Notes: generated from the sequence alone by a model not told the origin. Numbered from the stretch's first letter, positions 10,208-57,076 are shown. The stretch: DNA of 64,000 nucleotides from Ignavibacteriota bacterium (GCA_963701295.1 OY969585.1:1312001-1376000); one strand, 5' to 3'. Made by a program: numbers and translations.

Positions 10208-10265
10208 ATGAAACATGACCCTGAATATGGTTGAGGGTTTCTGATAAAAAAGAAATGAGAAGATT

Positions 10266-31539: not shown

Positions 31540-31555
31540 TTGGTACAATCATTGC
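31540..31555 (+). promoter_or_regulatory. Putative sigma-54 promoter of the multiheme cytochrome locus
   Basis: TTGGTAC-AATCA-TTGC with exact GG-N10-GC spacing in an AT-rich intergenic region, about 165 nt before the first ATG. Confidence 0.6.
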
Positions 31556-31721
31556 CAATTGTTCAATGTTTTAGGTTATCAAAAAGAATCGGTGAATGTG
31601 TTTGAATAACGAATTTCTGAATGCTTGATAATCAAAATATGATTTGTCACCTTATGCGTGCCTTCATCCGTCATAATGTTTGTAGAAAAAGAATTCAGGT
31701 TGTTACCAGCGAAAAAAATCG

Positions 31722-33932
31722 ATGCAGAAACCTAAGCATTTAAGAATAAATCATTTCATAATCATCATATTAGCAAGTGTGTTACTTCCTTGTCTCGTTT
31801 CTGGGCAGACCGTGGATGATTGTCTTGCATGTCATTCAGACAATACGTTGACGATAGAGAAGAAGGGAAAAACAATTTCCCTGTTTGCGGATCAATCGAT
31901 ATTAAAAAAATCATCCCATGCAAAACTTATCTGCATTGCCTGCCATGTTAGTTTCGATGCCGGCAATGTTCCCCACAAAGAGAAGATCGATCCGGTCAAT
32001 TGTTTAAACTGTCACAAAGATGCGATCACCAAACATCTTATTCACAGCCCGATATTGGAATCAAAAACAAGCGATTCAGAACTTATCGTTTCATGCAAAC
32101 AATGTCATGGCACGCATAACGTTCAACGCACAAAAATAAGGACTACCGGAATGATATCGGCAGAATCGGTTGATATCTGTGCGACCTGCCATGAACAACA
32201 AGCGCGGCATTATCGCCTTTCGGCACATGGCAAAGCGTCGAACTCTGGAGTTATAGGTGCACCTGTTTGTATGTCGTGCCATCGAAGTCAGATCACAAGA
32301 TTAAAAGATAGTTCCGATTCTGCGAAAGTGAAACTTATGCAGGAAAAGCTTTGTCTCTCATGTCATCTGGATGATCCCAATGTACGTAGGCAGGTTTCGC
32401 CGACGGCAGGTTTTATTGCTGCCTATGAAAAAAGTGTCCATGGCTCTGAGCTATTGAAAGGAAATGCTTCCGCCGCGAATTGTATCAATTGTCATAGCAG
32501 CCATGAAATTGAGAAGGGAAAAGAGTCAACGTCACTTGTAAATCGCAATCACATTCCGGAGACATGCGGTACTTGTCATGCTTCCATAGGGCACGAGTAT
32601 CGGGAAAGTATTCATGGAACCGCATCGATCAAGGGCAATAAAGAAGCACCTGTGTGTACGGATTGCCATGGTGAACATAATATTCTTTCGCCATCAAATC
32701 CGAATTCTCCTGTTTCAGCACGCAATGTTTCTGCTCAGGTCTGTGCGCCATGTCACAGTTCAGTCACATTAATGGAAAAATTTGGACTTGCCGGGGATCG
32801 ATTTAAAACATTTTCATCCAGTTTCCATGGTCTAGCAACGAGTTCTGGGAGTACAGAAGTTGCAAATTGTGCAAGTTGTCACGGAGTGCATAACATCAAA
32901 CCATCCAGCGATTCCACTTCTTTGGTTCATAAATCCAAGCTTGCAACAACCTGTGGTAAATGTCACCCTGGAGCGAATGAACGATTTACTGTAGGTTCCA
33001 TTCATTCCTCAAATACAGACAAAAATGAAGAACCTGTACTCTATTGGGTGTCATTGCTCTATGTTCTTCTTATTGCATCGATCATCGGCGTGATGACATT
33101 GCACAACCTTCTCGACTTCTATCGAAAATCAAAACGAAGGTTGATGATCAGGCGTGGATTAGTAGCCGAGGAACACTATGGACACACATTATATGTACGT
33201 ATGACTTTGAATGAACGCATTCAGCATATTTTACTCATGCTCAGTTTCTTTACGCTTGTTTTTACGGGTTTTATGCTCCGGTATCCAGAGGCATTTTGGG
33301 TTGTCGCAATCAGAAATCTGAACACAAACGTTTTCGATATGCGCGGCATCATACATCGGATTTCTGCAGCAGTGATGGTAACGGCAAGCTTGTATCATCT
33401 TTATTATATTATTTTTGTGCCGCGCGGGAAACAATTGATTCGTGACTTGTTGCCGGTTAGGAATGATATTATTGATGCGATTTCTGTACTGAAGTACAAT
33501 CTTGGCTTTTCACCGATCAAACCAAAATTTGACAGGTTCAATTACATCGAGAAGAGTGAATATTGGGCGCTGGTATGGGGAACCGTTGTGATGAGTGTAA
33601 CTGGTGTCATTCTATGGTTCGATAACACATTTATGGGATTATTTACAAAGCTTGGTTGGGATGTCGCTCGTGCGGTACATTTCTATGAAGCATGGTTAGC
33701 CTTCCTTGCTATCATTATCTGGCATATATATTTTGTCATTTTTAATCCGGATATTTATCCAATGAATCTTGCTTGGCTCAAAGGTTCGTTAACAGAATCG
33801 GAAATGGCAGAAGAACACGCGAAGGAGCTTGCTACATTAAAGCGCGCAGCGCTGGAAGAGGAGAGGAAAATGATATCCGTAATTGTTGATGAAGAAGATG
33901 CAGCGAACACATCAGAGGAGAAGTCCATATAA
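31722..33932 (+). CDS. CbcL-like fusion: 13-heme c domain plus membrane di-heme b (FdnI/HydC-type) domain
   Basis: Signal peptide, 13 CxxCH motifs counted, then TM region with ERIQH, IIHR, YHLYY, FNYIEKSEYWA, VHFYEA, WHIY. Confidence 0.88.
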   Translation: MQKPKHLRINHFIIIILASVLLPCLVSGQTVDDCLACHSDNTLTIEKKGKTISLFADQSILKKSSHAKLICIACHVSFDAGNVPHKEKIDPVNCLNCHKDAITKHLIHSPILESKTSDSELIVSCKQCHGTHNVQRTKIRTTGMISAESVDICATCHEQQARHYRLSAHGKASNSGVIGAPVCMSCHRSQITRLKDSSDSAKVKLMQEKLCLSCHLDDPNVRRQVSPTAGFIAAYEKSVHGSELLKGNASAANCINCHSSHEIEKGKESTSLVNRNHIPETCGTCHASIGHEYRESIHGTASIKGNKEAPVCTDCHGEHNILSPSNPNSPVSARNVSAQVCAPCHSSVTLMEKFGLAGDRFKTFSSSFHGLATSSGSTEVANCASCHGVHNIKPSSDSTSLVHKSKLATTCGKCHPGANERFTVGSIHSSNTDKNEEPVLYWVSLLYVLLIASIIGVMTLHNLLDFYRKSKRRLMIRRGLVAEEHYGHTLYVRMTLNERIQHILLMLSFFTLVFTGFMLRYPEAFWVVAIRNLNTNVFDMRGIIHRISAAVMVTASLYHLYYIIFVPRGKQLIRDLLPVRNDIIDAISVLKYNLGFSPIKPKFDRFNYIEKSEYWALVWGTVVMSVTGVILWFDNTFMGLFTKLGWDVARAVHFYEAWLAFLAIIIWHIYFVIFNPDIYPMNLAWLKGSLTESEMAEEHAKELATLKRAALEEERKMISVIVDEEDAANTSEEKSI

Positions 33933-33970
33933 CACAGGTATGATTACGATTAAGGCCGAAGAAATCTTGC

Positions 33971-35464
33971 ATGAAAAAAATATTTCCTGATTCATTTTAC
34001 AATCCCATTACACTCCTTGGGGGCGCTATTGCTTCTATCAGTTTCGGCTTGATTGTGTTTCTTGCTGTACTTGATGCATTGGCTAAGGAACAAAAGCCGT
34101 ATATGGGCATTATTACTTTTATTGTCTTGCCTATATTTCTTATCGGGGCACTTATACTGATTGTATTCGGCGTGATGAGAGAACATCGGCGAAAAAAACA
34201 CGGACTTGTCACCGAACATCGCCTGCCGCGCATCGACTTAAATGATTCCAAACAACGAACAGCTTTCGTAACGGTTTCTCTCGTGAGTCTTCTTCTTTTG
34301 GGATTCAGCGCTTTTGGGAGTTTCAAAGCCTATGAGTACACCGATTCTGATCAATTCTGTGGAACTATGTGTCACAAGGTTATGCATCCGGAATATACGG
34401 CATATCAATATTCACCTCATGCGAGAGTCGGTTGTGTACAATGTCATATTGGTCCCGGGGCAGGATGGTATGTGCGCTCAAAATTCTCTGGTGCCTATCA
34501 AGTGTATTCTGTTCTCTTCAACAAATATTCACGACCTATTCCTACACCGATAGAGAATTTACGTCCAGCCCAGCAAACCTGCGAGCAGTGCCATTGGCCC
34601 CAGCACTTCTTTAGCGAGAAATTTCTACACAACACATACTATCTTTCAGATGATAAGAATAGCAAATGGACACTAGATCTCCTTGTCCGTATTGGCGGAG
34701 GAAATATCGAGGCGGGCCCCACATCGGGAATCCATTGGCACATGAACATTGGCAATGAAGTCATGTATGTCCCGACCGATTCCCAACGACAAGTGATTCC
34801 CTGGGTTCGCGCGAAGGACCTCAACGGTAAAGTTACCGTTTATCGATCGATTGATCAACCGATGAGTGATTCAGCGGCAGCGCAAAAAGAAATGCGGCGG
34901 ATGGATTGCATCGATTGTCACAATCGCCCAACGCATATTTATCATCCTCCAGCACGATCTGTGAATCATGTTATATCTCTTGGCTGGATCGACCCCGAAC
35001 TTCCGAGTATTAAAAGTCTTGCCGTCAAAGTTCTTGAACAATCCTACACATCAGAGGCGCAGGCTGGCGAAGGCATTAAACAAAAGATCAAAGAATTTTA
35101 TTCGCTCAACCATCCGGATATTGCACGGGATAAGCAAAAAAATATTGACCGTGCCATTGAGGAGGTCCAAAAGATATATTCGCGGAATTATTTTCCAGAA
35201 ATGAATGTATCGTGGAAGCGATTTAATGATAACGTTGGGCACATGTATTATCCAGGTTGTTTCCGATGTCATGATGGAAAGCATGTTTCTGACAATGGAA
35301 AAGTGTTGTCACGGGAATGCAATGTCTGTCATACAATTCTCTCGCAGCAATTCGAGAAAAAAGGCTTGCGAATGTCATTAAGCGGAGTTGAGTATCAACA
35401 TCCAGTTGATATTGGAAATGCATGGAAAGAAATGAACTGTAGCGATTGTCATAATGCCCAATAG
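33971..35464 (+). CDS. ImcH-like NapC/NirT-family quinol dehydrogenase (7 hemes)
   Basis: Three N-terminal TM helices, FCGTMCH (CX3CH) plus 6 CxxCH, MHPEY..Y..SPHARV.CVQCHIG, LRPAQQTCEQCHWP. Confidence 0.88.
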   Translation: MKKIFPDSFYNPITLLGGAIASISFGLIVFLAVLDALAKEQKPYMGIITFIVLPIFLIGALILIVFGVMREHRRKKHGLVTEHRLPRIDLNDSKQRTAFVTVSLVSLLLLGFSAFGSFKAYEYTDSDQFCGTMCHKVMHPEYTAYQYSPHARVGCVQCHIGPGAGWYVRSKFSGAYQVYSVLFNKYSRPIPTPIENLRPAQQTCEQCHWPQHFFSEKFLHNTYYLSDDKNSKWTLDLLVRIGGGNIEAGPTSGIHWHMNIGNEVMYVPTDSQRQVIPWVRAKDLNGKVTVYRSIDQPMSDSAAAQKEMRRMDCIDCHNRPTHIYHPPARSVNHVISLGWIDPELPSIKSLAVKVLEQSYTSEAQAGEGIKQKIKEFYSLNHPDIARDKQKNIDRAIEEVQKIYSRNYFPEMNVSWKRFNDNVGHMYYPGCFRCHDGKHVSDNGKVLSRECNVCHTILSQQFEKKGLRMSLSGVEYQHPVDIGNAWKEMNCSDCHNAQ

Positions 35465-35478
35465 AAAGTAATTCTTCT

Positions 35479-35934
35479 ATGAATCAAATACCTGAGATTC
35501 CAGAGAACCAAAGTAAAAGAGATTTCCTTCAATGGATTCTGGCTGGTGGTGTCACAGCTTTTTTAGCAGCTGTATTGTACCCAATTTTTGCGTACCTCAA
35601 TCCACCGAAACAACCAGAGGTTGAAGTCTCGAGCGTTAAAGCGGGAAAGCTCAGTGAAATGGAAAAGGAGAGCGGAAAAATTATCAAGTTCGGCACAAAA
35701 CCAGTGATTATAATCAGGACTGCAAACGGTGAAGTACGTGCATTTTCCGCAACCTGTACGCATCTCGATTGCACCATTCAATTCCGGAAAGATTTTGGTA
35801 CAATTTGGTGCGCCTGTCATAATGGAAAGTATGATCTTAACGGAAGAAATATCTCTGGCCCGCCGCCGCGACCTCTTGATGAGTTCAGAGTCGTGGTTCA
35901 AGGTGATGAAATCCTTATTTCGAAAAAAACATGA
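35479..35934 (+). CDS. Rieske [2Fe-2S] subunit of a Rieske/cytochrome b complex
   Basis: KRDFL Tat-like anchor, CTHLDC and CACHNGKY boxes, GPPPRPL. Confidence 0.93.
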
Positions 35935-37004
35935 AAACATTCCTACAACGAATTTACTCATGGATTGACGAGCGAGTTGAGATTCAGGGACTCGTGGAAT
36001 ATATGGGAAAAAAATATGTTCCTGTACATCGCCATTCAATTTGGTACTATTTTGGAGGAGTATCACTCTTCCTCTTTATTATACAGGTTGTCACAGGCAT
36101 CCTTTTGCTTCTCTATTACAAAAGCGGAGAAGAACTTGCATTCGAAAGCATTAACTTTATCATGTCAAAGGTGCAATTCGGCTGGCTCATTCGGTCGATC
36201 CATAGCTGGACTGCAAACTTATTTATTCTCTCGGCGATGATTCATATGTTCAGTGTGTTTTTTGAAAAAGCCTACCGAAAGCCACGCGAAATTACATGGG
36301 TAACAGGTATGTTTATGTTCTTCCTTGCGCTTGGATTCGGATTCAGCGGGTATCTTCTTCCATGGAATGAACTCGCATTTTTTGCTACAAAGGTCGGAAC
36401 AGACATCGCAGGTGTTGTTCCAATTATTGGCAAGCCGTTGATGATCTTCCTTCGAGGCGGAGAAGAGGTGACCGGGGCAACACTTTCACGGTTCTTTGGT
36501 TTCCACGTCGCTGTGCTTCCGGGACTCTTCACAGTGTTTCTCGGTGTTCATCTTCTTCTGGTTCAACGACAAGGAATGAGTGAACCATTGGATATCAAAA
36601 AAGAAACTGAACAAAAGACGATGCCTTTCTTTCCGAATTTCATTTTACGTGATCTCACTCTCTGGCTCCTTGTTCTCAATCTTCTCGCTATTCTTGCAGT
36701 ATTTTTTCCATGGGAATTGGGCAAGAAAGCTGATGCATTTGCACCTGCACCTGCCGGAATAAAACCAGAATGGTACTTCCTCTATATGTTTCAGACATTG
36801 AAATATATCCCAGGCAAATTATTGTTTTTGGATGGCGAAATCCTGGGTATCCTTCTCTTTGGAATTGCAGGACTTTTGTGGACGGTGGTGCCGTTTTGGG
36901 ATCGCAAGAGTTCGCGGGGAGAACAGAATCGTTTTGTGAATTATATTGGACTCTTCGCTATCGTATACATTATCATTTTCACGATCATTGGATGGCTCGC
37001 ATGA
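35931..37004 (+). CDS. Cytochrome b of a Rieske/cytochrome b complex (b6 plus subunit IV-type fusion)
   Basis: [31 protein letters not shown]; ATGA overlap with the Rieske gene. Confidence 0.93.
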
Positions 37005-38476
37005 AACAGAGAATTATTCTTTTTGCCACAACTCTAATAGCTGTCCTTGTTTCAAGAGAATGTGTTCTTGCAAACGACAAGTGTCTTGAGTGCCATCGAA
37101 ATACAGAGGACAAACCTTCAGCATTATTTTTAAATGATATTCATTATACCAAGGGAATTACATGTGCCGGGTGCCATGGAGGCAATCCCAACACTGAAGA
37201 GATGGAACGAGCAATGGACAAAAAGGTCGGTTTCATCGGAGCGCCGAAAGGAGACGATATCTCCAAGATATGTGCTGCATGCCATTCTTCTCCTGAAAAG
37301 ATGAAATCGGTTGGTTCGTCTCTTCCAACAAATCAGTGGGAGATATTGCAGACGAGTGTCCACGCAAAGCTTTCACTAAAAGGAAAAGAACACATTACGC
37401 AGTGTGTTACTTGCCACAATTCACATGGAATTGTCTCCGTCAAAGATCCATCTTCGCCTGTGTATCCTCTGAATGTTGTCAAAACGTGTGTGAAGTGCCA
37501 TGCAAATATAACAATGATAAAATCCTATAATACATCTCTTCCAGTTGATCAATTGGAAAAATATCGAACGAGTGTTCATGGTATACTCAATGCAAAGGGG
37601 GATCCTAAGACTGCTGAATGTGCAAGTTGCCATGGAAGTCATGACATCCGATCTGCAAAGGATGTGAAATCAAAAGTATATGCTTCAAACCTTCCGGGAA
37701 CATGTGCAACCTGTCATAGCAACGCTGAATATATGAAGGCGTATAAAATTCCTACAAATCAATACGAAAAATATGCAAGGAGCATTCATGGTGTTGCATT
37801 ACTTCAAAAGCATGACGCAGGAGCTCCAGCATGCAACAATTGTCATGGAAATCATGGTGCAGTACCTCCGGGTGTAGAATCGGTCTCAAAAGTGTGCGGC
37901 ACATGTCATGCACTCAATGCTGATCTTTTTTCATCAAGTCCTCATAAGAAAGCGTTTGATCAGCGCAAGCTCCCTGAGTGCGAAACATGCCACAGCAATC
38001 ATGAAATTATAGCTGCGACCGATAAATTATTAGGTGTTACACCAGAGGCTATTTGCAGCAAGTGTCACAATGAAACTCAAAACGTCAAAGGGTATCAAGT
38101 GGCAAAAAAAATGCGTGGATTGATAGATAGTTTAGAAGCAGCTGAGAGAAGGGATCAAGAATTGGTCTATGAAGCTGAACAGAAAGGAATGGAAATCAGC
38201 GAGGCGAAGTTCAGGCTCCGGGATGTTCGACAAGCTCGGCTTCAATCTCGAACAGCGGTTCATGCTTTTAGCGAAGAGAAATTCGCCGAAGTTATTAGTA
38301 ATGGCTTAAAAACAGCTGCTTCAATTGTAGTGGAATCCGAAAGTGCAATCCGTGAATATTATTTTCGAAGAATTGGATTGGCTGTCTTGACAAGTATTAT
38401 CACAATCCTGGCAATATCATTATTCTTATATATCAAGCAGCTTGAGAATAAACAAGGTAAAAATAAGAAAAATTGA
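37001..38476 (+). CDS. 11-heme cytochrome c with C-terminal membrane anchor
   Basis: Signal peptide from ATG 37001 (overlaps the cytb stop), 11 CxxCH counted, coiled region, C-terminal [25 protein letters not shown]. Confidence 0.9.
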
Positions 38477-38709
38477 GGAATATTTAGCAACTTCTGGACT
38501 CTTCTTACATTCCTTTTACTCCAATACCCTATTTGTTTTTTCTCCATTTAGAAGCAAAAAAGAACATAATTGTGGAACTCTAAAGTTTAAAGATTTGTTC
38601 CAATCACTTGCTTTTATATTATTACTCTATTACCTTAATATTGTATAATTAATATACAATTTTATTTAATTATAGTTGATAATTAAAACATTTTTGAAAG
38701 GAAAACTCT

Positions 38710-39225
38710 ATGCGAACAATAATACTTCTTTTTGCCATCCTCCTTATTGTTCCTTTCATATTAAACGCTCAAAACAAGTATGTTGGTGTCAAGATGTGCA
38801 AAATTTGTCATCAATCAGAGAAGCAAGGAAAACAATTTGATGTCTGGCAAAAGAGCAAGCATGCGGAAGCATTTAAAACCTTGTCTTCAGATACAGCGAA
38901 TGCAATTGCAAAAGCGAAAGGATTGAAGAAGACTGCTGCGGAATCTCCGGAGTGTCTTGAATGTCATGCAATTACAGCTGATCCAAAATTGATGGCTGAT
39001 GGTGTTCAATGCGAAATGTGCCACGGTGCAGGTTCTTCTTATAAGAACATGGCGATTATGAAAGATTCAGTGAAGGCTGTAGCAGCTGGTTTGGTCATCT
39101 ACAAAGATAAAGCGGCAATCGAAAAGAAGTGCAAGGCATGTCATAATGAAAAGAGTCCGTTCTATAAGACATTCAAATTTGAAGAAATGTGGGCGAAAAT
39201 TAAACATCCAATTCCAAAAGGATGA
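38710..39225 (+). CDS. Periplasmic tetraheme cytochrome (c554-like)
   Basis: Signal peptide, YVGVKMCKICH, W..SKHA.AF, CLECH, GVQCEMCHG.GS.Y, CKACH. Confidence 0.88.
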   Translation: MRTIILLFAILLIVPFILNAQNKYVGVKMCKICHQSEKQGKQFDVWQKSKHAEAFKTLSSDTANAIAKAKGLKKTAAESPECLECHAITADPKLMADGVQCEMCHGAGSSYKNMAIMKDSVKAVAAGLVIYKDKAAIEKKCKACHNEKSPFYKTFKFEEMWAKIKHPIPKG

Positions 39226-39348
39226 CATTTTATCTCGATTGAAAACTTTGATTTTACTGTAAAGTGGGACACAAAAGGTGTTTAGTCTTTAAAATTAATT
39301 GAATTATCATTTAATCGCTTTAACTAAACCATTCATGGGCGATGAACA

Positions 39349-40662
39349 ATGAAACGTCTGATATCGCAATGCACTTTTACGTTTACAATTGTGCTTGGAG
39401 TGCTTTTCTGTATTATAAGCTCTGAAGCGTCAGGTCAATTTTTTCAATTGCGTCTTGTATCATCAGCCTATGCATGGCAGCGGCAGGATACTGTGGGGCA
39501 ATCCTCAAACCATCTTTTCGGATATCAGACAGCTCAACTTTCGTTCGCCGGTGAACATCTTTCATTCCATACGTACATGCAGGGGTTCAATGATTTTACC
39601 GGTCCGTTGAAAAACGAAGGTACTGTCCGGTTTTATGATTTTTATTTAAAATACTCCGACTTACTCGATAAGATTGATCTCAGTCTTGGACGTCAAACAA
39701 TCTTTGCTGGTGTTGGCAATGGCACCATCGATGGCGGTGTTGCTTCAATCAGATTACTTGATTCTAGATTAAAGGTGCTTGGATATTACGGTTCACTTCC
39801 CAGTCCAGAGCAAAAGTTGGAAATGATCGGAGATCAAAAGAATAATAGCATGCTTGGTGCTCAAGTTATTGGTACGCCGACCGAATATGCGCGTGTGTCA
39901 CTGAGTTATATGCATGAGAATTTGAAACCGGAAACATATTGGGCAAAACGTGCATACGATTCCACATATAATGTGCACGATGTCGAGATTACTCCACTCG
40001 CAACTGCAGAAGAATATGTAAGCGGAGATGTCAATATAGAATACAACATCGTCTCTGCGTATGCACGCAGCGATTATGATATGATTTTGGATAGGCTCTC
40101 AAGAATCCAGCTTTTTACTCGTGTCAAAGTTACGGAACCACTTTCATTAACCGGCGAATATATTCACCGTGAGCCTCGCTTATCTTATAATTCCATCTTC
40201 TGGGTGTTTGCATATAACACGATCAGCGAATATGAACTCGGTGCTGAATATGCAATCTGCAAAGACTGCCAAGTCTTTGGGAAATTCGGATCTGTTTCAT
40301 ATGGCGACGACAATTCCAACCGCATTACTTTGGGTGGCAGCACGAAATACACCTCTGTAAGTTTTAGCTGGAATACAGGTTATGGCGGAGAATTAGCAGC
40401 ATTTTCTGTAAATGCCGGTTATCCATTGATGAACAATAAACTAACCCCAACCGTGATGGTGGGATATGCGCATTATAAATTAAGCAGCGATGCCCCGACA
40501 TTAGATGCGTTGAGCGGCGCGCTAGGAGTTGTATATCGGCCTGTTCCAGTGTTTTCGCTGGATACACAAGCACAGTGGATTAAAAATAAAATTTATAGCA
40601 ACGATGTACGCCTCTTTGTTCGAGGCAGCTATTATTTCGGCGAACGATTGAACATTTTCTGA
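39349..40662 (+). CDS. Putative outer-membrane beta-barrel porin of a porin-cytochrome complex
   Basis: Signal peptide, alternating amphipathic Tyr/Phe/Gly-rich strands, no heme motif, C-terminal Phe; 7 nt before a multiheme gene. Confidence 0.75.
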   Translation: MKRLISQCTFTFTIVLGVLFCIISSEASGQFFQLRLVSSAYAWQRQDTVGQSSNHLFGYQTAQLSFAGEHLSFHTYMQGFNDFTGPLKNEGTVRFYDFYLKYSDLLDKIDLSLGRQTIFAGVGNGTIDGGVASIRLLDSRLKVLGYYGSLPSPEQKLEMIGDQKNNSMLGAQVIGTPTEYARVSLSYMHENLKPETYWAKRAYDSTYNVHDVEITPLATAEEYVSGDVNIEYNIVSAYARSDYDMILDRLSRIQLFTRVKVTEPLSLTGEYIHREPRLSYNSIFWVFAYNTISEYELGAEYAICKDCQVFGKFGSVSYGDDNSNRITLGGSTKYTSVSFSWNTGYGGELAAFSVNAGYPLMNNKLTPTVMVGYAHYKLSSDAPTLDALSGALGVVYRPVPVFSLDTQAQWIKNKIYSNDVRLFVRGSYYFGERLNIF

Positions 40663-40669
40663 GATCAAC

Positions 40670-41908
40670 ATGCCAACAACTCGAACGAACACTTTGTTTA
40701 TTATAAAGAATGGATACCTGTGTTTCGGTCTGGTACTCATCCTATTGCTTAGTTTCACTGCTGTATTGAAATCCCGAGAAACAACCGGTGATAACAAACA
40801 ACGGAAGTGCGTAAAATTCTCGCACCAATTCCATGTAAAAGAATCCGGTATTGCGTGTATAGATTGTCATGCAAACGCATCGAAAAGCGTGAATGCATCG
40901 GACAATCTTCTCGCGAAAATGGAATCATGCAAAAGCTGCCATGAAGATCAGGTTAAAAGCAATTGTACTTACTGCCACACTAGCGCCGATTCCGCAACAT
41001 ATACAGCTTCTCAAAACCCGGTGCGCGAATTTCGTTTTTCACATCAACAGCATGTAGAAGATCAAAAAATCGATTGTGAGAGTTGTCATACAATGCTTGA
41101 TAAAGCTGGAGCTGCAATTGGAGAGCTTGTACCTGCAATGACGATCTGTGTAACTTGCCATAATGATGTGAAAGCAACCGGTGCATGCGAGAAATGTCAT
41201 ACGAATTTGGCTGCACTGAGGCCCGCGGAACATAACCGATCAGATTTTTTACATGAGCACAAGCAATTGGCGCGTATGGGCGATGCCAAGTGTGGTACGT
41301 GCCATACACAAGAAAGTTGTCTTGATTGCCATAATGGTTCGGCATTAGTGAAGGTTGACGTTCCGGGCCGTGATTTGATGTCACAATATTCGCCGCGACT
41401 TACTTCAATAGACCGCGGTCAAGGAATGGTGTTAACAAAAGTGCATGATCTGAATTTCCGATTCACGCATGGCATTGCCGCAAAGGGCAAAACGATGGAA
41501 TGCCAGACCTGTCATAGTCAGGAACAATTTTGCTCCACATGCCATCAAGCAGGGGGCAATGTCAATCAAGGTGCATTTAAACCATCATCACATATGGCTG
41601 CTGGATTTACAACGCTGGGCGTTGGAAGCGGTGGCGGTGAACATGCACGTCTGGCAAAACGAGATATTGAATCGTGCGCAGCCTGCCATAGTGCAGAGGG
41701 TGCCGATCCAGTGTGTATCACCTGCCATGTCGATCCTGACGGAATAAAGGGTAATGATCCGAAAACGCATGACCCTGGCTTCATGTCCAATACACATGGG
41801 CCCTGGCATAGTGATCCCGGCGCCAATTGTTACATGTGCCATACAGATGTCAACGCACATCCGGGCGGAGTGAAAGGACAGAAATTCTGCGGTTATTGCC
41901 ACCGATAA
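40670..41908 (+). CDS. 14-heme cytochrome c (c7/c3-like repeats), periplasmic or porin-embedded
   Basis: 14 CxxCH counted; two FSHxxH...CxxCH c7-like units, then paired hemes. Confidence 0.9.
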   Translation: MPTTRTNTLFIIKNGYLCFGLVLILLLSFTAVLKSRETTGDNKQRKCVKFSHQFHVKESGIACIDCHANASKSVNASDNLLAKMESCKSCHEDQVKSNCTYCHTSADSATYTASQNPVREFRFSHQQHVEDQKIDCESCHTMLDKAGAAIGELVPAMTICVTCHNDVKATGACEKCHTNLAALRPAEHNRSDFLHEHKQLARMGDAKCGTCHTQESCLDCHNGSALVKVDVPGRDLMSQYSPRLTSIDRGQGMVLTKVHDLNFRFTHGIAAKGKTMECQTCHSQEQFCSTCHQAGGNVNQGAFKPSSHMAAGFTTLGVGSGGGEHARLAKRDIESCAACHSAEGADPVCITCHVDPDGIKGNDPKTHDPGFMSNTHGPWHSDPGANCYMCHTDVNAHPGGVKGQKFCGYCHR

Positions 41909-41923
41909 TGGGATGGATTGACT

Positions 41924-42793
41924 ATGAAGAAACTCTATATCATTCTCATTTTGATGTTATTGATAATATCAGCACTTCTCACTTCATGCAGTGATTTAAA
42001 GAAAGATCTACCGACAGCAACAAGTGCTGAAGTACAGATTCATGGACAAGGATGGATCGATACCGGCTCTGTAAATTTCCATGGCAAGTATATTCAAAAC
42101 ATTAATTACAATCTTGCAATTTGCAAGCAGTGTCATGGAAGTAATTATGAAGGCGGTACATCAAACAGTTCATGCTGGCAATGTCACTCAGGACCCGGCG
42201 GGCCGGAAAATTGTGCTACATGTCATGGCATGCCTCCTGCGCCGGATCGTTATGGAAATACTTCCTCTACCGCCCCTGGAGTTGGGGCGCATTATATACA
42301 TTATACAGGAACAGGAACAATTTCCTCCACAGCGATGCATTGCGAAGATTGCCATCATTTGCCCAACGGAGTTTCTGACTCAACACATATCACCGCAACG
42401 AGAATTGCGCAAGTACAGATAAGTAATTTAGGCGCTCTGCAAACGAATGGTGTTGTTCCATCAGCTTCGTTTAGCCAGTCGACTTTAAAATGCACAAATA
42501 CATTTTGTCATGGTAGTTGGATGTTACCGAAATCCGGATTGGCAACCGATTCTGTGTTTTCCGGTACTGTAATGAGTGGAGCAAATTATTCGCCGATATG
42601 GAATGGCGGATCTTCCCAAGACAGTTGCGGCTCTTGTCATGGAATTCCTCCATCCGGCCATAATTCTTACGGCCCATCTAATTCTCAAGGTTGTTCACTC
42701 TGTCATGAAGATGTTACAACCGCTTCCGGAAAACTCATGCATATGAACGGAAAGATTAATCTTGCAGGCGGAGTGGTAAGAAACTTCCGATAA
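41924..42793 (+). CDS. Lipoprotein multiheme cytochrome (6 CxxCH plus 1 CX4CH)
   Basis: LLTSC lipobox; CTNTFCHG...P.W...CGSCHG.PP matches the CxxxxCH...CxxCH repeat seen in Geobacter-type surface cytochromes. Confidence 0.87.
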   Translation: MKKLYIILILMLLIISALLTSCSDLKKDLPTATSAEVQIHGQGWIDTGSVNFHGKYIQNINYNLAICKQCHGSNYEGGTSNSSCWQCHSGPGGPENCATCHGMPPAPDRYGNTSSTAPGVGAHYIHYTGTGTISSTAMHCEDCHHLPNGVSDSTHITATRIAQVQISNLGALQTNGVVPSASFSQSTLKCTNTFCHGSWMLPKSGLATDSVFSGTVMSGANYSPIWNGGSSQDSCGSCHGIPPSGHNSYGPSNSQGCSLCHEDVTTASGKLMHMNGKINLAGGVVRNFR

Positions 42794-42901
42794 TAAAATT
42801 AAATAATTCTTTATAGGTACGCATATTCTAAAGAATATGCTCATTTATAGGATGATAAAGATAAATAATTAAATTTTAACCTTTAACGAAAAAGGTGTTA
42901 T

Positions 42902-44176
42902 ATGATGAACAAAATATTCGGGAGTTTCGCTACCTGTTTGGTTAGCCTCTTTGTGATTGTGGTCATGTCAGGTTGTAAAGAAGGTCCCACAGGTCCTGCA
43001 GGTAAAGATGCTTTTGTCGGCGCTCTCGAAGGCTATGCCCCTGGCATTCAATGCGCTACATGTCATAGTGCAGATTCTGATACAACATATCGAGTTGTTG
43101 CAAGGGATGTTCAATATGCTACATCAGAGCATGCTGTGGGTGGTGATTTTGCACGCAATACGTATGATTGCGCTGGTTGCCATACGAATGAAGGTTTCTA
43201 CGACCGTTATAATAGGGGTTTTACAAATGAAACATTTAACATCAATGCTCCTTCAGTAGAAATTTGTACCCAGGGTTATCCTAATGCAACACCTCCCGGC
43301 TGCTTTACCTGCCATGCACCTCATCAACGTGCCAATTTCACAGTACGTGATTCCGGTGCAGTAAATATCTTTACGCTTGTTGCTGGACAGACAACACAGA
43401 TATGGAACAGCAGTGCAGCATCCAATTTGTGCGTAAAGTGCCATCAACCGCGAATGACTTCGACATTTATGTGGGCAACTACCTCTTCCAGTGGCATAAC
43501 ACCAGCGTCTTGGCAGCCGGATCCATCAAAAATAAATATAACAGATACGGCAAAAATCTACACATCGCGTTGGAATAACCACGTCTCAGGTGAGCCGGCG
43601 CAAACTTTACTTGGTACCGGTGGATTTGAATTCACGGATTATTCGAATTATCAAAGCTCATATCATACTACTTTAATAAACAACAAAGCGCTGGGTTGCG
43701 AAGATTGTCACATGGCAACTGTGAATGGCGGTAATCAAAACGGCGGGCATACATTCTGGGTGCGTTATCTTGCATCAGGCTCGACAAGCCCATCCTATAA
43801 TGTAAATGGCTGTAATGTATCCGGGTGTCATACAGGCCTTACAGCTTCAGCGTCCGATGCACACTGGGGAGAGCGTGCAACAATTATTGGAGAGACTGCA
43901 CAACTTGCTAAAATGTTGATGGATACATCAATTACAAATAAGTGGTCACAGAAAAGTAAAATTCCTTGGGTGACAGTAACTGCTGGCACGATTGCAGGTG
44001 ATTCCACTTATGGAGTCAATGCAACGGGGAGTAAGCCGCTGATTATTGCTCCAGCTTATAAAGCCGGTGCGATTTGGAATTTGCAACAGGTTCAATATGA
44101 AAAGAGCCATGGTATTCACAATTATAAATATGTTAAGGCTCTGTTGGATAATTCGATTGCAGAGCTTAATAAGTAA
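42902..44176 (+). CDS. Lipoprotein multiheme cytochrome (5 CxxCH plus 1 CX4CH), putative cell-surface reductase
   Basis: VMSGC lipobox, short GPTGPAG linker, CATCH/CAGCH/CFTCH/CVKCH/CEDCH/CNVSGCH, C-terminal EKSHGIHNYKY. Confidence 0.87.
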   Translation: MMNKIFGSFATCLVSLFVIVVMSGCKEGPTGPAGKDAFVGALEGYAPGIQCATCHSADSDTTYRVVARDVQYATSEHAVGGDFARNTYDCAGCHTNEGFYDRYNRGFTNETFNINAPSVEICTQGYPNATPPGCFTCHAPHQRANFTVRDSGAVNIFTLVAGQTTQIWNSSAASNLCVKCHQPRMTSTFMWATTSSSGITPASWQPDPSKINITDTAKIYTSRWNNHVSGEPAQTLLGTGGFEFTDYSNYQSSYHTTLINNKALGCEDCHMATVNGGNQNGGHTFWVRYLASGSTSPSYNVNGCNVSGCHTGLTASASDAHWGERATIIGETAQLAKMLMDTSITNKWSQKSKIPWVTVTAGTIAGDSTYGVNATGSKPLIIAPAYKAGAIWNLQQVQYEKSHGIHNYKYVKALLDNSIAELNK

Positions 44177-44222
44177 GACCAGGTGCTGCAATACCTAAGC
44201 ATTATCATGTATTGTTTCAACA

Positions 44223-44255
44223 TGTGCGGGAGTAAATCTCCCGCACACTTGTTTT
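44223..44255 (+). terminator. Intrinsic terminator or stabilising hairpin after the last cytochrome
   Basis: TGTGCGGGAG-TAAAT-CTCCCGCACA then CTTGTTTT. Confidence 0.65.
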
Positions 44256-44356
44256 CAATTAAATCCCTTCTAAGTGAAACCTTCATATTCAGTTCTGTGT
44301 TGTATTTCGCAGAGTGATTGTTTATTATCTTAATCATCGAATAAAAGGAATATGCC

Positions 44357-46604
44357 ATGATCGGTACTGTTGTCATCTGGATTGCTTGTCTTGCTGGTTT
44401 TACTTCGGCTGTGCTGTATGCATCGTCTATAAAAAAACCAAAAAATCTTCTCAAAGCCCGCAGCGGTTTTATCCTGACGGTTATCAGTGTCATTTTAGGT
44501 TCTGCGCTTCTTATGATTTATATACTCCAGCACCGGTTTGAATATAGCTATGTCACAAATTATAGTTCTCGCGATTTACCAACTGCGTTGCTGATCACAA
44601 CCTTCTGGGCAGGGCAGGAAGGGAGTTTTTTATTGTGGGCATTATTTGCTGTAATCATCGGTATTATTCTTCAGCGATACAGCCGACACAAAGGAATGGA
44701 AGCGGAAGTGATGTCCGCATACTCTCTGGTGATTGCTTTCCTTATTCTGTTGATCTCTATAAAATCTCCATTTCAATATCTTTGGGAAGATCATCCGAGC
44801 GAAGTTCAACCAGGGTTCATTCCTCAAGATGGACGTGGTCTCAATCCGCTTTTACAGAATTTTTGGATGATAATTCATCCGCCGGTACTCTTCATTGGAT
44901 TTGCATCATTGGCAGTTCCGTTTGTCCTCGCTATGGCAGCTCTTTGGCAGAAAAAGTACAATGAATGGATTCGTTCAGCACTTCCGTGGGTGCTTTTTAG
45001 CGGATTGTCACTTGGTTCTGGACTTATATTTGGAGGCTATTGGGCATATGGTGTGCTTGGCTGGGGCGGATGGTGGGGCTGGGATCCGGTAGAAAACTCA
45101 TCGCTCATTCCATGGATCGTTGCCGTTATCCTTGTTCATACGATGCTTATTCAGATGTTAACCGGCAAACTTGTACGAACAAATTTTATTCTTACAGTGT
45201 TAGCGTATCTGTTGATTATCTACAGCACGTTTCTGACACGCAGTGGAGTTCTCGCGAATGCTTCTGTGCATTCGTTTGTAGACCCTGGTTCGCTTGTTTA
45301 TACATTCCTGGTTGTATGGCTGGCGCTCATTGCCATTGGTGGCTTTGGAATGATTATTCTGCGGCGAAAGGATCTGATGAGTAAAAAACCAGCCAGCGCT
45401 TTGATGACACGTGAGTCCCTCCTGTCCATTGCCACGATTGTGCTGGGTGTTTGCGCGGCGATTATTCTGTTTGGAACAAGCAAACCTTTGTTTTCCGATT
45501 CGGTCGTTGAACCTGCTTTCTATGACCGCACGACTCTTCCTCTTGCGACGTTGATGACATTGTTACTGGGATTCAGCCTGCGGGTTAAATGGAATCAGGA
45601 GGATCGACAACTACTTTTCAAGCGCCTTATAATTCCAGGTACTTTCTCTGTTCTTGTTCTTGCTGTTCTTGTCTTTTTAGGCCTGCATGATGTGTTTGCA
45701 GTACCTGCTTGTTTTGACATCACTCTTCGCTTTTTTTGTTAGTGTCGATCAAGGATTTCGTTTGGCAAAGGAACGACTGCTTTTTATCGGCGGGGCGCTT
45801 GCTCATACAGGATTAGCCGTATTGTTCATTGGCATTATAGCTTCTGGGCGTTATGGACAGAAACAATCCGTTGCGCTTCCACTCAATCAGTCTCAATGGG
45901 TTTTCGGGTACAAGTTGACCTATAACGGCACTCAACCGACAGAAGATGGTAAAACAAAATTTATTGTCCATGTGGATCAAGAGGGAAAGCGTAAAACGTT
46001 TGAACCGGTTATGTTTGAGAGTATTTACAATAATAGCCTCATGCGTAATCCAGACTATAGCAGTTACTGGACAAAGGATTTTTACATCGAACCGGTTTCT
46101 CTTGAACAGAATAACACAGAACAACAAAACATTATCGATTTACTAAAAGGAGAAACTATTCCTTACGGTCCCATGACGATCACATTCCATAAATTTGATC
46201 TTTCATCACATGACAAAGGCAAAATGTCGGGAGGCAGCGATGGTGCTATGACTATCGGTGTTGTGCTTGAAGTGAAAACAGAAAAAGACATTCAGACCGT
46301 TGTACCAGTAACAACGTATACTTCGAAAGGCGCAATGGAAATGAAAACTGCCTATTTACAGAATAGTCATATTGGATTCCAACTAGTATCGATGAATATA
46401 GGGACAGGCAAAGGAGAAAGATCCCATGTGCGCATCAATGTCGTGGGAGCGGGGGAAAATCATGGAATGAATCAGAAGCCTGAAACACTCATCGCTGAAG
46501 TGAGTGTGAAACCGTTTATGAATTTTGTATGGATTGCTGCTGTGTTGATTATAAGCGGTTTGACAGTAGCGATGGTGAGACGATTGAAGCCGAATAACAT
46601 CTGA
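44357..46604 (+). pseudogene. ccmF: CcmF/NrfE-family cytochrome c heme lyase, split by a +1 frameshift near 45704 (likely a sequencing error)
   Basis: WAGQEGSFLLW, GLNPLLQN, IHPP, WGGWWGWDPVEN, TRSG, SVHSF; removing one C joins ...LHDVFAV-LLVLTSLF... to the C-terminal ORF (AHTG, VSVKPFMNFVW). Confidence 0.88.
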
Positions 46605-46737: not shown

Positions 46738-47454
46738 TTATTCTTCTGATTGAAGAATATTCTCTTTGAGATAGATGAATTTATTTGCTTGGTTCATCAC
46801 GAGCATATCTTTCGGAACAATTTTTAGCAGTCCACGATTCTGAAAATTATCTAACATCAAATTCAAAATAAAGTGTACTTTAAAGTACAAACCTGATTCA
46901 GTACTCTTTGCCTTCATTGCCTCGTTTCGAACGACAGTCCATTTGAAATCGGGATCGAATTTCAAATAAATACGAGATTGTCGATAACCACCCTGAATAC
47001 TATCCGATAGACCAACATAAGGATTTTTCGGAATGACGCAACCAGTTGTTGGAATTTCGTATGGCGCTTCAACTCGTGTTGGGGATTTCACAGAATACAC
47101 TCCTGCATCAGCATCGTACTGGATGAGTGTTGCCTTGAACCACACACCAAATACTCTTCGTTCCAGCTTGGCATCCTTGATATGTCCGTTCAGTTTATCC
47201 ATAAATGTCTGCCGTGCTTTCGCCGCGCGCGTATGGAATTCCGCTGTTGTCTCGAACTCATCACGAGTTCCAGTCTCCTTGATAAGCTGGTCAGTTGTCT
47301 CTCTTAAATAAGTCCACTCATCTTTCAGAATCAGAGAAAACAACTCAGGTGTAAGATCATCGTCTTGAAATGCCGGTTGTTGTGCTTCTGCCAGCTGCAC
47401 AGTGGCTGTGAGTAAAACCAAAAGAGAAAATATGACGGTGATATTCTTCTTCAT
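46738..47454 (-). CDS. Hypothetical exported protein
   Basis: AAGGA RBS; MKKNITVIFSLLVLLTATVQLAEA signal; DEFETTAEF..R and YDAD motifs. Confidence 0.75.
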   Translation of the reverse strand: MKKNITVIFSLLVLLTATVQLAEAQQPAFQDDDLTPELFSLILKDEWTYLRETTDQLIKETGTRDEFETTAEFHTRAAKARQTFMDKLNGHIKDAKLERRVFGVWFKATLIQYDADAGVYSVKSPTRVEAPYEIPTTGCVIPKNPYVGLSDSIQGGYRQSRIYLKFDPDFKWTVVRNEAMKAKSTESGLYFKVHFILNLMLDNFQNRGLLKIVPKDMLVMNQANKFIYLKENILQSEE

Positions 47455-47488
47455 ACTACATCCTTTCAAAAAGTACATTGAACATGAT

Positions 47489-48910
47489 CTATCGTATCGA
47501 TATAATATTCGCAGAGAGTGTTTTTGCAATCCCATGCGCATTTTGTACACAGTCCCCTACCGATATGCCACCGCGATAATTTCCGGCAAGCACAATGCCC
47601 GGATGGGATTCTTCAAATTGTGTTAGTGCATCTATTTTGTGCTGGTAACCGATTTCATACTGTGGAATCGATTTCTGCCAGCGTGTCAAATGTAAATATA
47701 CAGGATTTCCGGAAAGTTGCATGATAGATTTAAGTTCATCCAGCGTTATTTGAATGATGCGTTCATCGTTCAGGGTTGTCAATTCAGGCTGCCGTGCGCC
47801 GCCGATAAAGGCATTCAACGCAGCCATTCCTGCCGGTGCACGATGAGCAAAAAGGCAGGAATTCCATAAACAGCCGAGAATCTTCCTTTTCTCCTTCGAT
47901 GGAATCAGGAATCCAAAACCATCTAACCGATGTTCTATCTGTTCGCGCTTCACCCCTAAAAAAATAGAAACGATGGGTGAATAGTAAATGGAAGATAACA
48001 CGTGTGCTGTATTCACAGACAGCGATTTAATGAGTGGGGAAGCGTCGTATGCGGGGATGGCGAACACGACACTATCCGCTTCCATTTCTGTTTCTTGATC
48101 ATTATGAAGATATTCAACAAGATAGCGGCGTGCATCGGGTTCGTTCGATGGCTCGTTGCGCGCGGTGGTTAAATTTCTGATGTTGGTGACTTTTGCATTA
48201 AGAATAACCGAATTGCCAAGTGAAGTGGCAATGGCACACGGAAGCATTTGCATTCCGCTAACAAATGAAAAGGTCTCTGCGCGGTCTTTTGCTTTCTCGG
48301 CTCTCTGTTTTCTTTCCCGTGCACCTTTAATCATTCCTTTGACAAGTCCGCCGTACTTTTCTTCCAAGGCGTAGAGTTTGGGAAAAGCGGAACGCACACT
48401 GAGTTGTTCCGGCTTTCCAGCAAAAACTCCGGCAACAAATGGATCGATAGCATAGTCAAGGAAATCCCTGCCCAATCGTCGCTCCACGAATTCAGCAATG
48501 CTTTCTTCTTTTGTTGCTTTTCCGATGAACGGGTCTTTCATCACTCGGAATTTTGCAGCGGGAGAAAAGAGTTTTGTCGAAAGGAACGAACTAGGTCCAA
48601 GTGGCATGGAATGTAAAATACTATCCCGGAGAATGTACCGATTCTTGCCTTCAGGGTTTGCATATACAAATTCCGATTCTAATTTCAAGTCGGAGACAAG
48701 TTCCTTAATGAACGGAGTCGTTTCCAAACCGGTGTTTGCGCCTGTCTCGTACAAGAAGCCATGATCCTGTACGGATTTCATCGTTCCACCGACTTCGCGT
48801 TCTTTCGCCAGGACGGTTACCTTGATGCCGCGTTTTTTCAACCAATACGCAACGCAAAGTCCCGTGATACCTTCGCCGATAACGATGACATCTGTTTTCG
48901 TTGGTCCCAT
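47489..48910 (-). CDS. hemG: Protoporphyrinogen oxidase, HemY-type flavoprotein
   Basis: VIGEGITGL dinucleotide fold, GVFAG.PEQLS, GFGFLIP, IPQY, GNYRGGISVGDC; in the hem operon. Confidence 0.92.
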   Translation of the reverse strand: MGPTKTDVIVIGEGITGLCVAYWLKKRGIKVTVLAKEREVGGTMKSVQDHGFLYETGANTGLETTPFIKELVSDLKLESEFVYANPEGKNRYILRDSILHSMPLGPSSFLSTKLFSPAAKFRVMKDPFIGKATKEESIAEFVERRLGRDFLDYAIDPFVAGVFAGKPEQLSVRSAFPKLYALEEKYGGLVKGMIKGARERKQRAEKAKDRAETFSFVSGMQMLPCAIATSLGNSVILNAKVTNIRNLTTARNEPSNEPDARRYLVEYLHNDQETEMEADSVVFAIPAYDASPLIKSLSVNTAHVLSSIYYSPIVSIFLGVKREQIEHRLDGFGFLIPSKEKRKILGCLWNSCLFAHRAPAGMAALNAFIGGARQPELTTLNDERIIQITLDELKSIMQLSGNPVYLHLTRWQKSIPQYEIGYQHKIDALTQFEESHPGIVLAGNYRGGISVGDCVQNAHGIAKTLSANIISIR

Positions 48911-48986
48911 AGGTGTCTAAGTATAGAGTAAAAGGTGATAAGTAAAAAGTATAACAAACATGTATTTGAGATTTTGTTCTTAGAAT

Positions 48987-50093: not shown

Positions 50094-50146
50094 GAGTTCT
50101 TCGATTTCGGTTTCAGTCTATCATCTCTGCAATCTCACATCTCCAA

Positions 50147-51190: not shown

Positions 51191-51288
51191 CTTTGTAGAT
51201 CCTCTTTCGGTTTTAAAATTACAAATTGGAGGCTGAAGTAATCTTAATCCTTAATCCTAAATTTTAACTTACCAATTCTATTTTTAAT

Positions 51289-54279: not shown

Positions 54280-54280
54280 G

Positions 54281-55478: not shown

Positions 55479-55901
55479 TTATTTCTTCATTTCCTCCGCG
55501 GCCTTCTTTTCGAGATCTGTGGGCACTTTCACAAGAAGCGTTTTAATGTGCTTTGGAAATCGTCCATTTTCCTTTTCTTGCTTGATAAGCTCAACCATTG
55601 ATTTATCTGTAAATGCAAACACAATTTCCTGCGGTTTTTCGCTGAGGGAACCTGCCCAAAAAGCATTCGAGCGGACTTTGGCAAGCTCATCTACTCCAGG
55701 TTTTTCGCTTGTCGTTTTACTTGAGCTTGTTGAGATAAAACAGACTATTGTGCCGTCTTCAGAAACGGCATCGCATTCAAATTCTCCACCGGACTGTACT
55801 CCTAATTTGCGTTTTGCAAAAGCTTGATGATACTTCTTGGAAAGGAATTCGTGCCGTATCCAATTTTCAACATCTCTTGTAACTATCGTTGAGTCTGCCA
55901 T
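55479..55901 (-). CDS. Hypothetical protein, copy 1 (possible restriction-endonuclease-like fold)
   Basis: MADSTIV... with AAGGA RBS; strongly similar to 57077-57514. Confidence 0.8.
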   Translation of the reverse strand: MADSTIVTRDVENWIRHEFLSKKYHQAFAKRKLGVQSGGEFECDAVSEDGTIVCFISTSSSKTTSEKPGVDELAKVRSNAFWAGSLSEKPQEIVFAFTDKSMVELIKQEKENGRFPKHIKTLLVKVPTDLEKKAAEEMKK

Positions 55902-55924
55902 TGAATATTCCTTAGCGTCCATCT

Positions 55925-57073: not shown

Positions 57074-57076
57074 TGT

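Follow-up and report, generated by a model that had tools for sequence, protein, structure and literature searches.

A clustered porin-cytochrome locus with three candidate menaquinol-oxidizing modules in an Ignavibacteriota genome

Described systems and the present locus

OmbB-like outer-membrane conduits have been reported in Ignavibacteria (Arbour 2020, He 2019, Fortney 2018; PMC7399161, PMC6344600), and two published gene clusters come closest to the locus described here, whose barrel protein, G, may be related to OmbB of Geobacter (GSU2733). This locus, consisting of eleven genes labelled A to J plus ccmF, lies in a 64,000-nucleotide stretch (hereafter the window) of an Ignavibacteriota genome (GCA_963701295.1 OY969585.1:1312001-1376000). 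A sequence-only reading of the window had proposed a quinol-to-surface electron conduit in an Ignavibacteria-like host. We reach the same view and consider that the locus probably encodes an outward extracellular electron transfer (EET) chain running from three menaquinol-oxidizing modules to the cell surface, because the family signatures, the conservation of residues (including those of ImcH), the gene linkage, and the models of the barrel and of the G-H complex all point in this direction and no other cytochrome c sinks were found in the genome.

The first of the two clusters is a seven-gene set (JNFKJAOJ_00295-00301) in the metagenome-assembled genome (MAG) Bacteroidetes_1, which was proposed as an uncharacterized EET cluster (Berger 2021, PMC8258643). 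When the printed sequences, which are partly cut, were compared by eye, the genes proved to stand in the same order as A, B, F, G, H, I, and J: the 726-aa multihaem protein corresponds to A, the 516-aa protein to B, the tetrahaem protein to F, the barrel to G, and the 417-aa protein to H, followed by I and J. The enrichment of this MAG by 39-fold on an anode supports the outward reading of the present locus. The cluster has no Rieske, cytochrome b, or 11-haem genes between B and F, ccmF is not listed, and the counterparts of A and B are not identified as CbcL- and ImcH-like. The second is the porin-cytochrome (Pcc) cluster IALB_1840-1839-1838-1837 of Ignavibacterium album, which encodes a periplasmic cytochrome, a porin-like protein, a 400-aa 14-haem periplasmic cytochrome, and an outer cytochrome with an atypical motif (PMC4245776). 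Its layout equals that of F-G-H-I, with orthology judged from order, size, and haem count, and no inner-membrane modules are reported alongside; the bacterium is reported to have alternative complex III (ACIII) rather than a Rieske/b complex (PMC3362086). Homologues of the 14-haem protein H (43-45% identity), together with G and I, are also found in loci recorded under the names Ignavibacteriaceae, Melioribacter sp., and Stygiobacter electus.

In Geobacter sulfurreducens, ImcH (GSU3259) and CbcL (which we take to be locus tag GSU0274) do not lie beside conduits, unlike A and B. B shows the defining features and the residue pattern of the ImcH family, and A, with 13 haems, shares with CbcL the combination of a multihaem part and a cytochrome b part. 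The adjacent accession numbers of ImcH and CbcL in Desulfuromonas acetexigens (PMC12133095) suggest that the pairing of these two proteins is not unique to this locus, and pcc clusters with CbcL-like genes have been noted in Thermovibrio and Desulfurobacterium (Shi 2014, PMC4245776). The Geobacter cluster extHIJKLMNOPQS brings together a porin-like protein, the Rieske protein ExtO, cytochrome b ExtP/ExtQ, and 10-12-haem cytochromes (Jahan 2018, PMC5877670). However, this cluster, tied to selenite/tellurite reduction, has no ImcH or CbcL, its cytochrome b is split, its ExtI resembles phosphate-selective porins, and the paper calls it not analogous to pcc clusters. In Rhodoferax ferrireducens, several quinol oxidases are clustered with a porin-cytochrome conduit (cymA-cymA-mtrH-mtrABC), as here, and this conduit and the MtrCAB of Shewanella (6R2Q) share with G-H the principle of a cytochrome in a barrel with a lipoprotein outside (PMC6295460). 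The proteins of those conduits are nevertheless unrelated to G and H, no Rieske/b complex is present there, and MtrB has 26 strands (PMC12133095) against 22 predicted for G. We therefore rejected MtrCAB membership: none of 20 G homologues gave an MtrB family match, and H is a 14-haem rather than a decahaem protein.

As far as their available text goes, papers on Melioribacter (PMC3534657, PMC5492636), I. album (PMC3362086), and Caldithrix (PMC5317091) do not describe the locus. Literature searches, with figures and subscription papers outside their scope, returned no account of Rieske/b, ImcH, CbcL, and Pcc genes in one locus and no description of the strand number of G or of the G-H arrangement. 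The architecture is largely known, and the part not found in print is the inserted Rieske/cytochrome b/11-haem module, C-D-E. The suggestion that the all-in-one layout might be novel may hold for this insertion and fails for the remainder, given the seven genes in the same order in the anode MAG, the four-gene core of I. album, and the precedents in Rhodoferax, the Geobacter ext cluster, and Thermovibrio/Desulfurobacterium. This copy contributes three things: the cluster in its fullest form, within a genome that lacks cytochrome c oxidase; a model of the conduit structure; and the testable claim that a bc-type complex serves extracellular respiration.

Quinol-side modules A to E

B has all the published characteristics of ImcH, namely three N-terminal transmembrane (TM) helices, a CX3CH motif beside them, six CX2CH motifs, and a length of about 495-519 aa (PMC6295460). 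The spacing of its motifs (positions 130, 155, 204, 313, 430, 450, and 490) parallels that in PIP78050.1, a listed ImcH of Ignavibacteria (129, 153, 202, 311, 428, 448, and 488). Furthermore, H135, Q177, K171, Y186, and D125 of B match, at a constant offset of 2 and by spacing rather than alignment, the modelled haem-1 and quinol-site residues H137, Q179, K173, Y188, and E127 of ImcH (10.1101/2023.05.03.539133). Across 50 sequences, Q177 and K171 were each retained in 50/50, while position 186 was Y or F and position 125 was D or E. The only solved relative found by sequence was NrfH.

A falls within the published architecture of the CbcL/MtrH/MtoC family (3-23 haems, 416-1034 aa; PMC6295460): its N-terminal part has 13 haems and continues into a membrane-spanning cytochrome b domain in which His residues are conserved; the comparison with this family was made by description and not by sequence. 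The domain matched PF01292 above cut-off (residues 494-676), with TIGR01583 similarity below cut-off. Family members have six, rarely four or five, TM helices; a hydropathy scan of A gave a signal segment and four clear helices. Seven His residues in or next to the membrane part (His461, 502, 545, 559, 653, 668, and 699) were invariant in 20/20 aligned 13-haem sequences, and no solved relative of A was found by sequence. Many relatives have, next to the 13-haem gene, another CbcL-like gene of 19 haems that is either fused or split, and some carry 8- or 17-haem NapC-like extras (loci L022, L025, L026, L084, L085, L095, L101-L103, and L117); the number of entry modules therefore varies.

The features of a Rieske/cytochrome b complex are all present in C-D-E: the Rieske ligands, four haem-b His, the PEWY motif, and an adjoining c-type subunit. 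The Rieske ligands of C (C93, H95, C111, and H114) and C98/C113 were invariant in 38/38 sequences, and Gly116, in the second Rieske box, was also invariant. Likewise, the haem-b His of D (H91, H105, H192, and H207) were invariant in 39/39. The closest NCBIfam match of C was PetC of b6f, and D showed similarity to PRK03735 and ExtP/ExtQ, all below cut-off. D has no Cys and therefore no haem ci. We take the second-box Gly of C and the spacing of 15 residues in the second His pair of D to be marks of low-potential, menaquinol-using, b6-like complexes; the quinone is indicated to be menaquinone by the futalosine-pathway genes of the genome. A cytochrome bc1 or b6f complex proper was ruled out, E having 11 haems instead of being cytochrome c1 or f and D being a single polypeptide without Cys.

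E occupies the position where cytochrome c1/f would stand. It most likely starts at 37001, with a 4-base overlap with the stop of D, and not at the longest-open reading frame (ORF) start, 36770; its homologues are usually 484-500 aa. E and the haem domain of A share 26-30% identity (E 2e-29), and E has 3229 relatives, none of which was characterized by name among the 120 listed. Judging from these features, C-D-E would be a bc-type complex in which E replaces cytochrome c1, and it would translocate protons by a Q cycle.

The G-H conduit and the surface cytochromes

The AlphaFold2 model of G (mean pLDDT 83.9, pTM 0.70, from a 20-sequence alignment) has 22 membrane strands as counted, plus one loop hairpin, and no plug domain, in agreement with the earlier assignment of this gene as a beta-barrel. 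In a VIA-align wide search, the structures most like it were transporters of 22-24 strands, matched over their barrel walls (Z 19.3, rmsd 3.8, 344 aligned) and belonging to the TonB-dependent transporters and ushers; the match to MtrB (6r2q_B; Z 15.3, rmsd 7.2, 359 aligned) was below these. We rejected G as a TonB-dependent transporter, since the match is limited to the barrel wall and a plug is missing from the mature chain of 410 residues. This copy of G had no Pfam or NCBIfam match, and weak porin Pfam matches were seen in 5/20 homologues. An Atlas search returned only unnamed Ignavibacteriota/Bacteroidota clusters, and no solved relative was found by sequence profile.

In 73 sequences of H, 12 non-motif His are invariant and M157 (100%) and M372 (90%) are conserved. 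With 14 haems to ligate, this set fits a wire without an open site. A search against solved structures by sequence gave only c7/ActA-like local matches, and the score against the DmsE model was far below cut-off. The model of the G-H complex scored 0.62, compared with 0.00 for the best of three controls; this mark is attained by 116/157 solved complexes and 2/215 mismatched pairs, which is a rough guide only for the alignments used here, and the likeness of G-H to MtrAB may raise the score. Among the runs, at least 59% of contacts agreed and the partner pLDDT was at least 64. Because the contacts of G with H involve alternating residues of nearly every strand, H is placed in the barrel lumen. 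The modelled interface covers H residues ~166-394, of which 333-337 and 386-387 contact the G loop 276-290, located outside by strand counting; the C-terminal haems of H are predicted to lie against this loop. Thus, the 14-haem H is predicted to be inserted in a 22-strand barrel, and the first five haems of H, outside the confident interface, would project into the periplasm. G, H, and I were adjacent in 20/20 loci picked across the class for long contigs. On the periplasmic side, F has a hydrophobic segment at its N-terminus only and is predicted to be a soluble carrier.

I carries the Geobacter CxxxxCH/CxxCH domain, and a lipobox-like Cys was found by a simple pattern in 67/80 homologous ORFs of I and 28/35 of J. 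Both look like lipoproteins and are likely located at the cell surface. I appears to be the dedicated outer cytochrome and J an optional second one. The I slot is highly variable among relatives, with 11-, 14-, and 18-haem versions replacing the 6-7-haem lipoprotein while G and H are fixed (L046, L065, L068, and L104). J has six invariant non-motif His, and its fold was judged from a profile match to NrfA chains (best E 5e-6), together with Atlas look-alikes; a faint match to 6i5b (OcwA) was also seen. Provided that CxxCK and the active-site His and Tyr have the roles in NrfA that we assume for them, J does not qualify as an NrfA nitrite reductase: all its motifs end in His, CxxCK is absent, no His or Tyr stands at the aligned active-site positions, and PF02335 is below cut-off. 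Nevertheless, J may have enzyme activity, because NrfA variants without the Lys exist (10.1101/2022.02.24.481543).

An ORF list and a motif script agreed with the sequence-only reading on the eleven co-oriented genes and on 62 c-haem motifs (Table 1), which consist of 59 CxxCH and three atypical motifs, CX3CH in B and CX4CH in each of I and J; the His of the latter three is kept in 100%, 97%, and 100% of 50, 38, and 29 aligned homologues, respectively. The locus spans 31722-46604 and its GC content is the same as that of the remainder of the window. In the genome (3.64 Mb, one contig, 99.3% complete), just 8/12,322 ORFs of at least 60 aa, shadow frames counted, have two or more CxxCH; because seven of these eight fall in the locus, the motif cluster is not due to chance. 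The locus holds 59/66 of the multihaem motifs of the genome. From A through ccmF, the intergenic distances are 38, 14, -4, -4, 233, 123, 7, 9, 108, and 180 bases. Because of the gaps of 233, 123, 108, and 180 bases and the hairpin after J, we describe these genes as one locus, and one operon remains putative. Terminator-like sites as a whole were close to chance (15 vs 12.8 +/- 3.9), and no promoter is claimed because the promoter scan was at chance level (39 vs 39.1 +/- 7.7).

Table 1. Genes and other features of the locus, with positions counted from the first base of the window
Feature	Position	Strand	Characteristics
A, CbcL/MtrH/MtoC-like fusion, 736 aa	31722-33932	+	Signal segment, 13 CxxCH, C-terminal FdnI-type cytochrome b domain
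B, ImcH-family menaquinol oxidase, 497 aa	33971-35464	+	3 N-terminal TM helices, CX3CH + 6 CX2CH, PF03264
C, Rieske 2Fe-2S protein, 151 aa	35479-35934	+	PF00355; Tat-like K/R-R-D-F signal anchor
D, Rieske/b-type cytochrome b, 357 aa	35931-37004	+	PF00033, PF00032; b6 + subunit IV fused; PEWY Qo motif
E, 11-haem cytochrome, 491 aa	37001-38476	+	11 CxxCH; N-terminal signal, C-terminal TM anchor
F, tetrahaem c554/NapM-like, 171 aa	38710-39225	+	4 CxxCH; PF13435 above cut-off
G, outer-membrane beta-barrel (predicted), 437 aa	39349-40662	+	Structure model, 22 strands, no plug
H, 14-haem cytochrome, 412 aa	40670-41908	+	14 CxxCH; predicted to thread G
I, lipoprotein cytochrome	41918-42793	+	6 CxxCH + 1 CX4CH; PF09698, TIGR01904 above cut-off; start may instead be 41924
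J, lipoprotein hexahaem, Gly-Pro linker	42902-44176	+	5 CxxCH + 1 CX4CH; PF22113 above cut-off
Hairpin, terminator-like	44223-44247	+	J-ccmF gap; 10 pairs, 7 G-C, T-rich tail
K/L, ccmF haem lyase	44357-46604	+	Two frames, 44357-45742 and 45687-46604; PF01578, PF16327, TIGR00353/TIGR03145 similarity

Directly downstream of ccmF, a secreted-looking 270-aa protein without a Pfam match is encoded on the minus strand (46738-47550), in the same place in 4/4 same-genus loci. A haem synthesis run (HemY/G-, HemH-, HemE-, HemD-, HemC-, and HemA-like by eye), with a CcsA/HemX-like gene at its head, lies tail-to-tail with the cytochrome locus on the minus strand (47489-55097), and its first genes adjoin the locus in same-genus genomes too. 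The window also contains a Hox-like NAD-linked NiFe hydrogenase with maturation genes (5915-12145, by eye), possibly an H2 donor side for the conduit, and two near-duplicate ORFs of 145-147 aa on either side of a 352-aa Fe-S-like ORF (56015-57514 and 55479-55922). Elsewhere in the genome (G000:C1:2171732-2173480, L144), a 358-aa ORF without an NCBIfam match has a signal segment followed by one N-terminal CxxCH and a beta-rich tail, a Cyc2-like layout by eye, and is followed by a mono-haem lipoprotein.

Distribution, electron sinks, and direction of flow

G was found in 125/201 genomes of the class searched, usually as one copy, and B in 98, of which 93 also carry G; related genomes are not independent in this comparison. 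A synteny search across Ignavibacteria genomes found B, D, and G together in 16/24 genomes of the organism's own order vs 1/177 outside it, with fragmented assemblies depressing both figures. Outside the order, 12 genomes have C-D-E immediately ahead of G (e.g. L039 and L040). From H, the best 80 of 555 genome loci were taken with a flank of 10 kb, and 58 of them have at least 8.5 kb upstream. Among these 58, G occurs in 58, I in 57, B in 48, F in 46, E in 38, ccmF in 38, A, C, and D in 35 each, and J in 22; all of A-I occur in at least 19/58, a lower bound because the flank was only 10 kb. Because the core is constant and the linkage of A-E variable, the system is modular, with a fixed G-H-I(-F) core to which entry modules have been added in this taxonomic order.

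The record titles of the H loci are mainly those of MAGs of Bacteroidota/Ignavibacteria, and the nearest of them stem from peat and fen metagenome projects. One record each is labelled Kryptoniota, Acidobacteriota, and Synechococcus, and one isolate, Stygiobacter electus, is included; it has a CbcL-like gene and F-G-H-I and no Rieske/b genes within the flank. The record titled Synechococcus sp. (L084) is an A-A-B-F-G-H-I-J cluster of Ignavibacteria type and probably reflects a binning or labelling error. In three loci (L067, L071, and L110), a 4-haem and 5-haem pair, unrelated to the window proteins and NrfA/NrfH-like in size, lies between E and F/G.

In this genome, no COX1 or other haem-copper oxidase, no NrfD/ACIII, and no NrfA above cut-off was found, and the sole molybdopterin-family match is NuoG-like; the conduit is therefore the most evident sink for C-D-E. 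A bd oxidase is present. The genome's only other multihaem gene encodes an Otr-family octahaem protein (G000:C1:562400-565637, L126; TIGR04315 above cut-off) and has a frameshift close to its end. Upstream of it lies a MerR-like regulator, and downstream come a PhsC-like cytochrome b, genes of the YeeE/YedE type, and a rhodanese-like ORF. Such octahaem proteins may, we presume, reduce nitrite. Nitrite as the only, soluble acceptor was rejected because no NrfA was found, though the Otr-type gene lies elsewhere.

In the outward chain, menaquinol, the presumed donor, would be oxidized by B, A, or C-D-E, and the periplasm would be bridged either by F or by direct contact with the first five haems of H. 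The electrons would then pass through the outer membrane along H, within the G barrel, to I and J. These two cytochromes would hand them on to Fe(III), humic quinones, electrodes, or partner cells, with Fe(III) and humic quinones as the presumable natural acceptors. As in Geobacter, the ImcH-like B would serve higher-potential and the CbcL-like A lower-potential acceptors. Geobacter depends on ImcH at potentials higher than about -0.1 V and on another route at lower ones (PMC4251993); in the literature on Geobacter, CbcL serves low potentials and ImcH is electroneutral. By analogy with this split, and because the Rieske/b complex is electrogenic (PMC5317091), a three-tier use of redox potential by A, B, and C-D-E may reasonably be inferred.

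Several observations weigh against the outward chain. A cytochrome b sample comprised 70 genomes taken from 150 listed of 233 matches (66 full-length copies of at least 56% identity, three copies of 61-72% that were split or cut, and one of 41% included for its position beside G, with other copies of 55% identity or less left out); while 66 of these genomes have G, only 29 have it within 15 kb. I and J have no clear acidic run after the lipid Cys, and J, being related to NrfA-group enzymes, may act on a soluble substrate. The Otr-type octahaem protein, with its own cytochrome b, could draw electrons, and COX1-family genes occur in 4/5 relatives tested, so the module may serve oxygen respiration elsewhere. 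In addition, the sole ccmF is frameshifted in this assembly, and I. album, despite its Pcc core, was unable to use oxides of Fe(III) or Mn(IV) (PMC4245776).

Some of these points would suit a division into two separately regulated units, in which A-E form a general menaquinol-to-periplasm hub (for Otr, the NrfA-like J, and, in relatives, oxidases) and F-J a Pcc conduit used under other conditions. The 233-base AT-rich gap between E and F, the frequent distance of C-D-E and B from G outside the order, the cytochrome b copies in four genomes and B in five genomes without G, and the Otr locus and relatives with COX1 are all compatible with such a division. However, the triple linkage within the order, the position of C-D-E directly ahead of G in 12 genomes outside it, and a genome without COX1, NrfD, or NrfA matches, in which Otr has its own cytochrome b and J the NrfA-deviating residues described above, make it unlikely.

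The direction of flow can be questioned in a similar manner. Electrons from Fe(II), reduced humics, a cathode, or a partner cell might pass inward through G-H to menaquinone, with A acting like MtoC, and on to the bd oxidase; CbcL/MtrH/MtoC homologues occur in both reducers and oxidizers without a distinguishing feature (PMC6295460). We regard inward flow as quite improbable, since the only role so far ascribed to ImcH is the oxidation of quinol (PMC6295460), outer lipoprotein cytochromes are typical of the conduits of reducers, no haem-copper oxidase was found in the genome, no pcc cluster was on record for known Fe(II) oxidizers in 2014 (PMC4245776), and the carrier of the orthologous cluster was enriched on an anode (PMC8258643).

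The haem lyase gene does close the locus, as the sequence-only reading had claimed, but it is split into two frames. The break, near 45705, lies in the only ccmF of the genome, whose remaining PF01578 matches are ccmC and a CcsA-like gene; ccmABCE are located elsewhere. An assembly error is the likely cause, because ccmF is one ORF of 747-749 aa in 4/4 same-genus genomes and 7/200 orthologues from a close relative, ccmF among them, are frameshifted in this genome. Contigs of relatives from three public runs have one base fewer at 45705. The public DNA runs compared share at most 0.11 of words with the genome and represent relatives at about 88-90% identity, and no RNA run was listed among the public sequencing runs matching it. 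If the frameshift were true, the locus might be decaying in this strain. Alternatively, the system might not support growth and might instead ease fermentation by taking up or storing electrons, as a sink or a capacitor. The frameshift in the Otr gene, the fermentative enzymes nearby in the window, and the failure of I. album to grow on metal oxides would agree with this. The other ten genes are nevertheless intact with invariant ligands, the genome-wide frameshifts are as expected in an assembly with indel errors, and the PEWY-bearing Rieske/b complex suggests energy conservation; we thus find a locus that does not support growth highly improbable, and keep to the outward chain.

More tentatively, and with doubt, we suggest that, in an order of Ignavibacteria-type bacteria of peat, fen, and sediment, a Q-cycling C-D-E with an 11-haem wire might be dedicated to the porin-cytochrome conduit. 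It would form a proton-translocating third entry beside the electroneutral ImcH and CbcL, all feeding one 22-strand/14-haem conduit with the choice made by acceptor potential. If this is true, the present genome, with no cytochrome c oxidase and most of its multihaem motifs in this locus, would be a minimal model, and C-D-E would let the cell gain extra energy from electron export. The export chain of Geobacter is divided among numerous redundant loci, while in this genome a single conduit and three candidate quinol-oxidizing entries fit within 15 kb, which makes it testable that the entry module, and not the conduit, sets the usable redox range, and that a bc-type complex conserves extra energy during mineral or humic respiration. 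The conduit is common in the class yet unseen by Pfam/NCBIfam, and the record titles of its nearest relatives point to metagenomes of peat and fen, habitats in which methane formation faces competition from the reduction of humics and iron.

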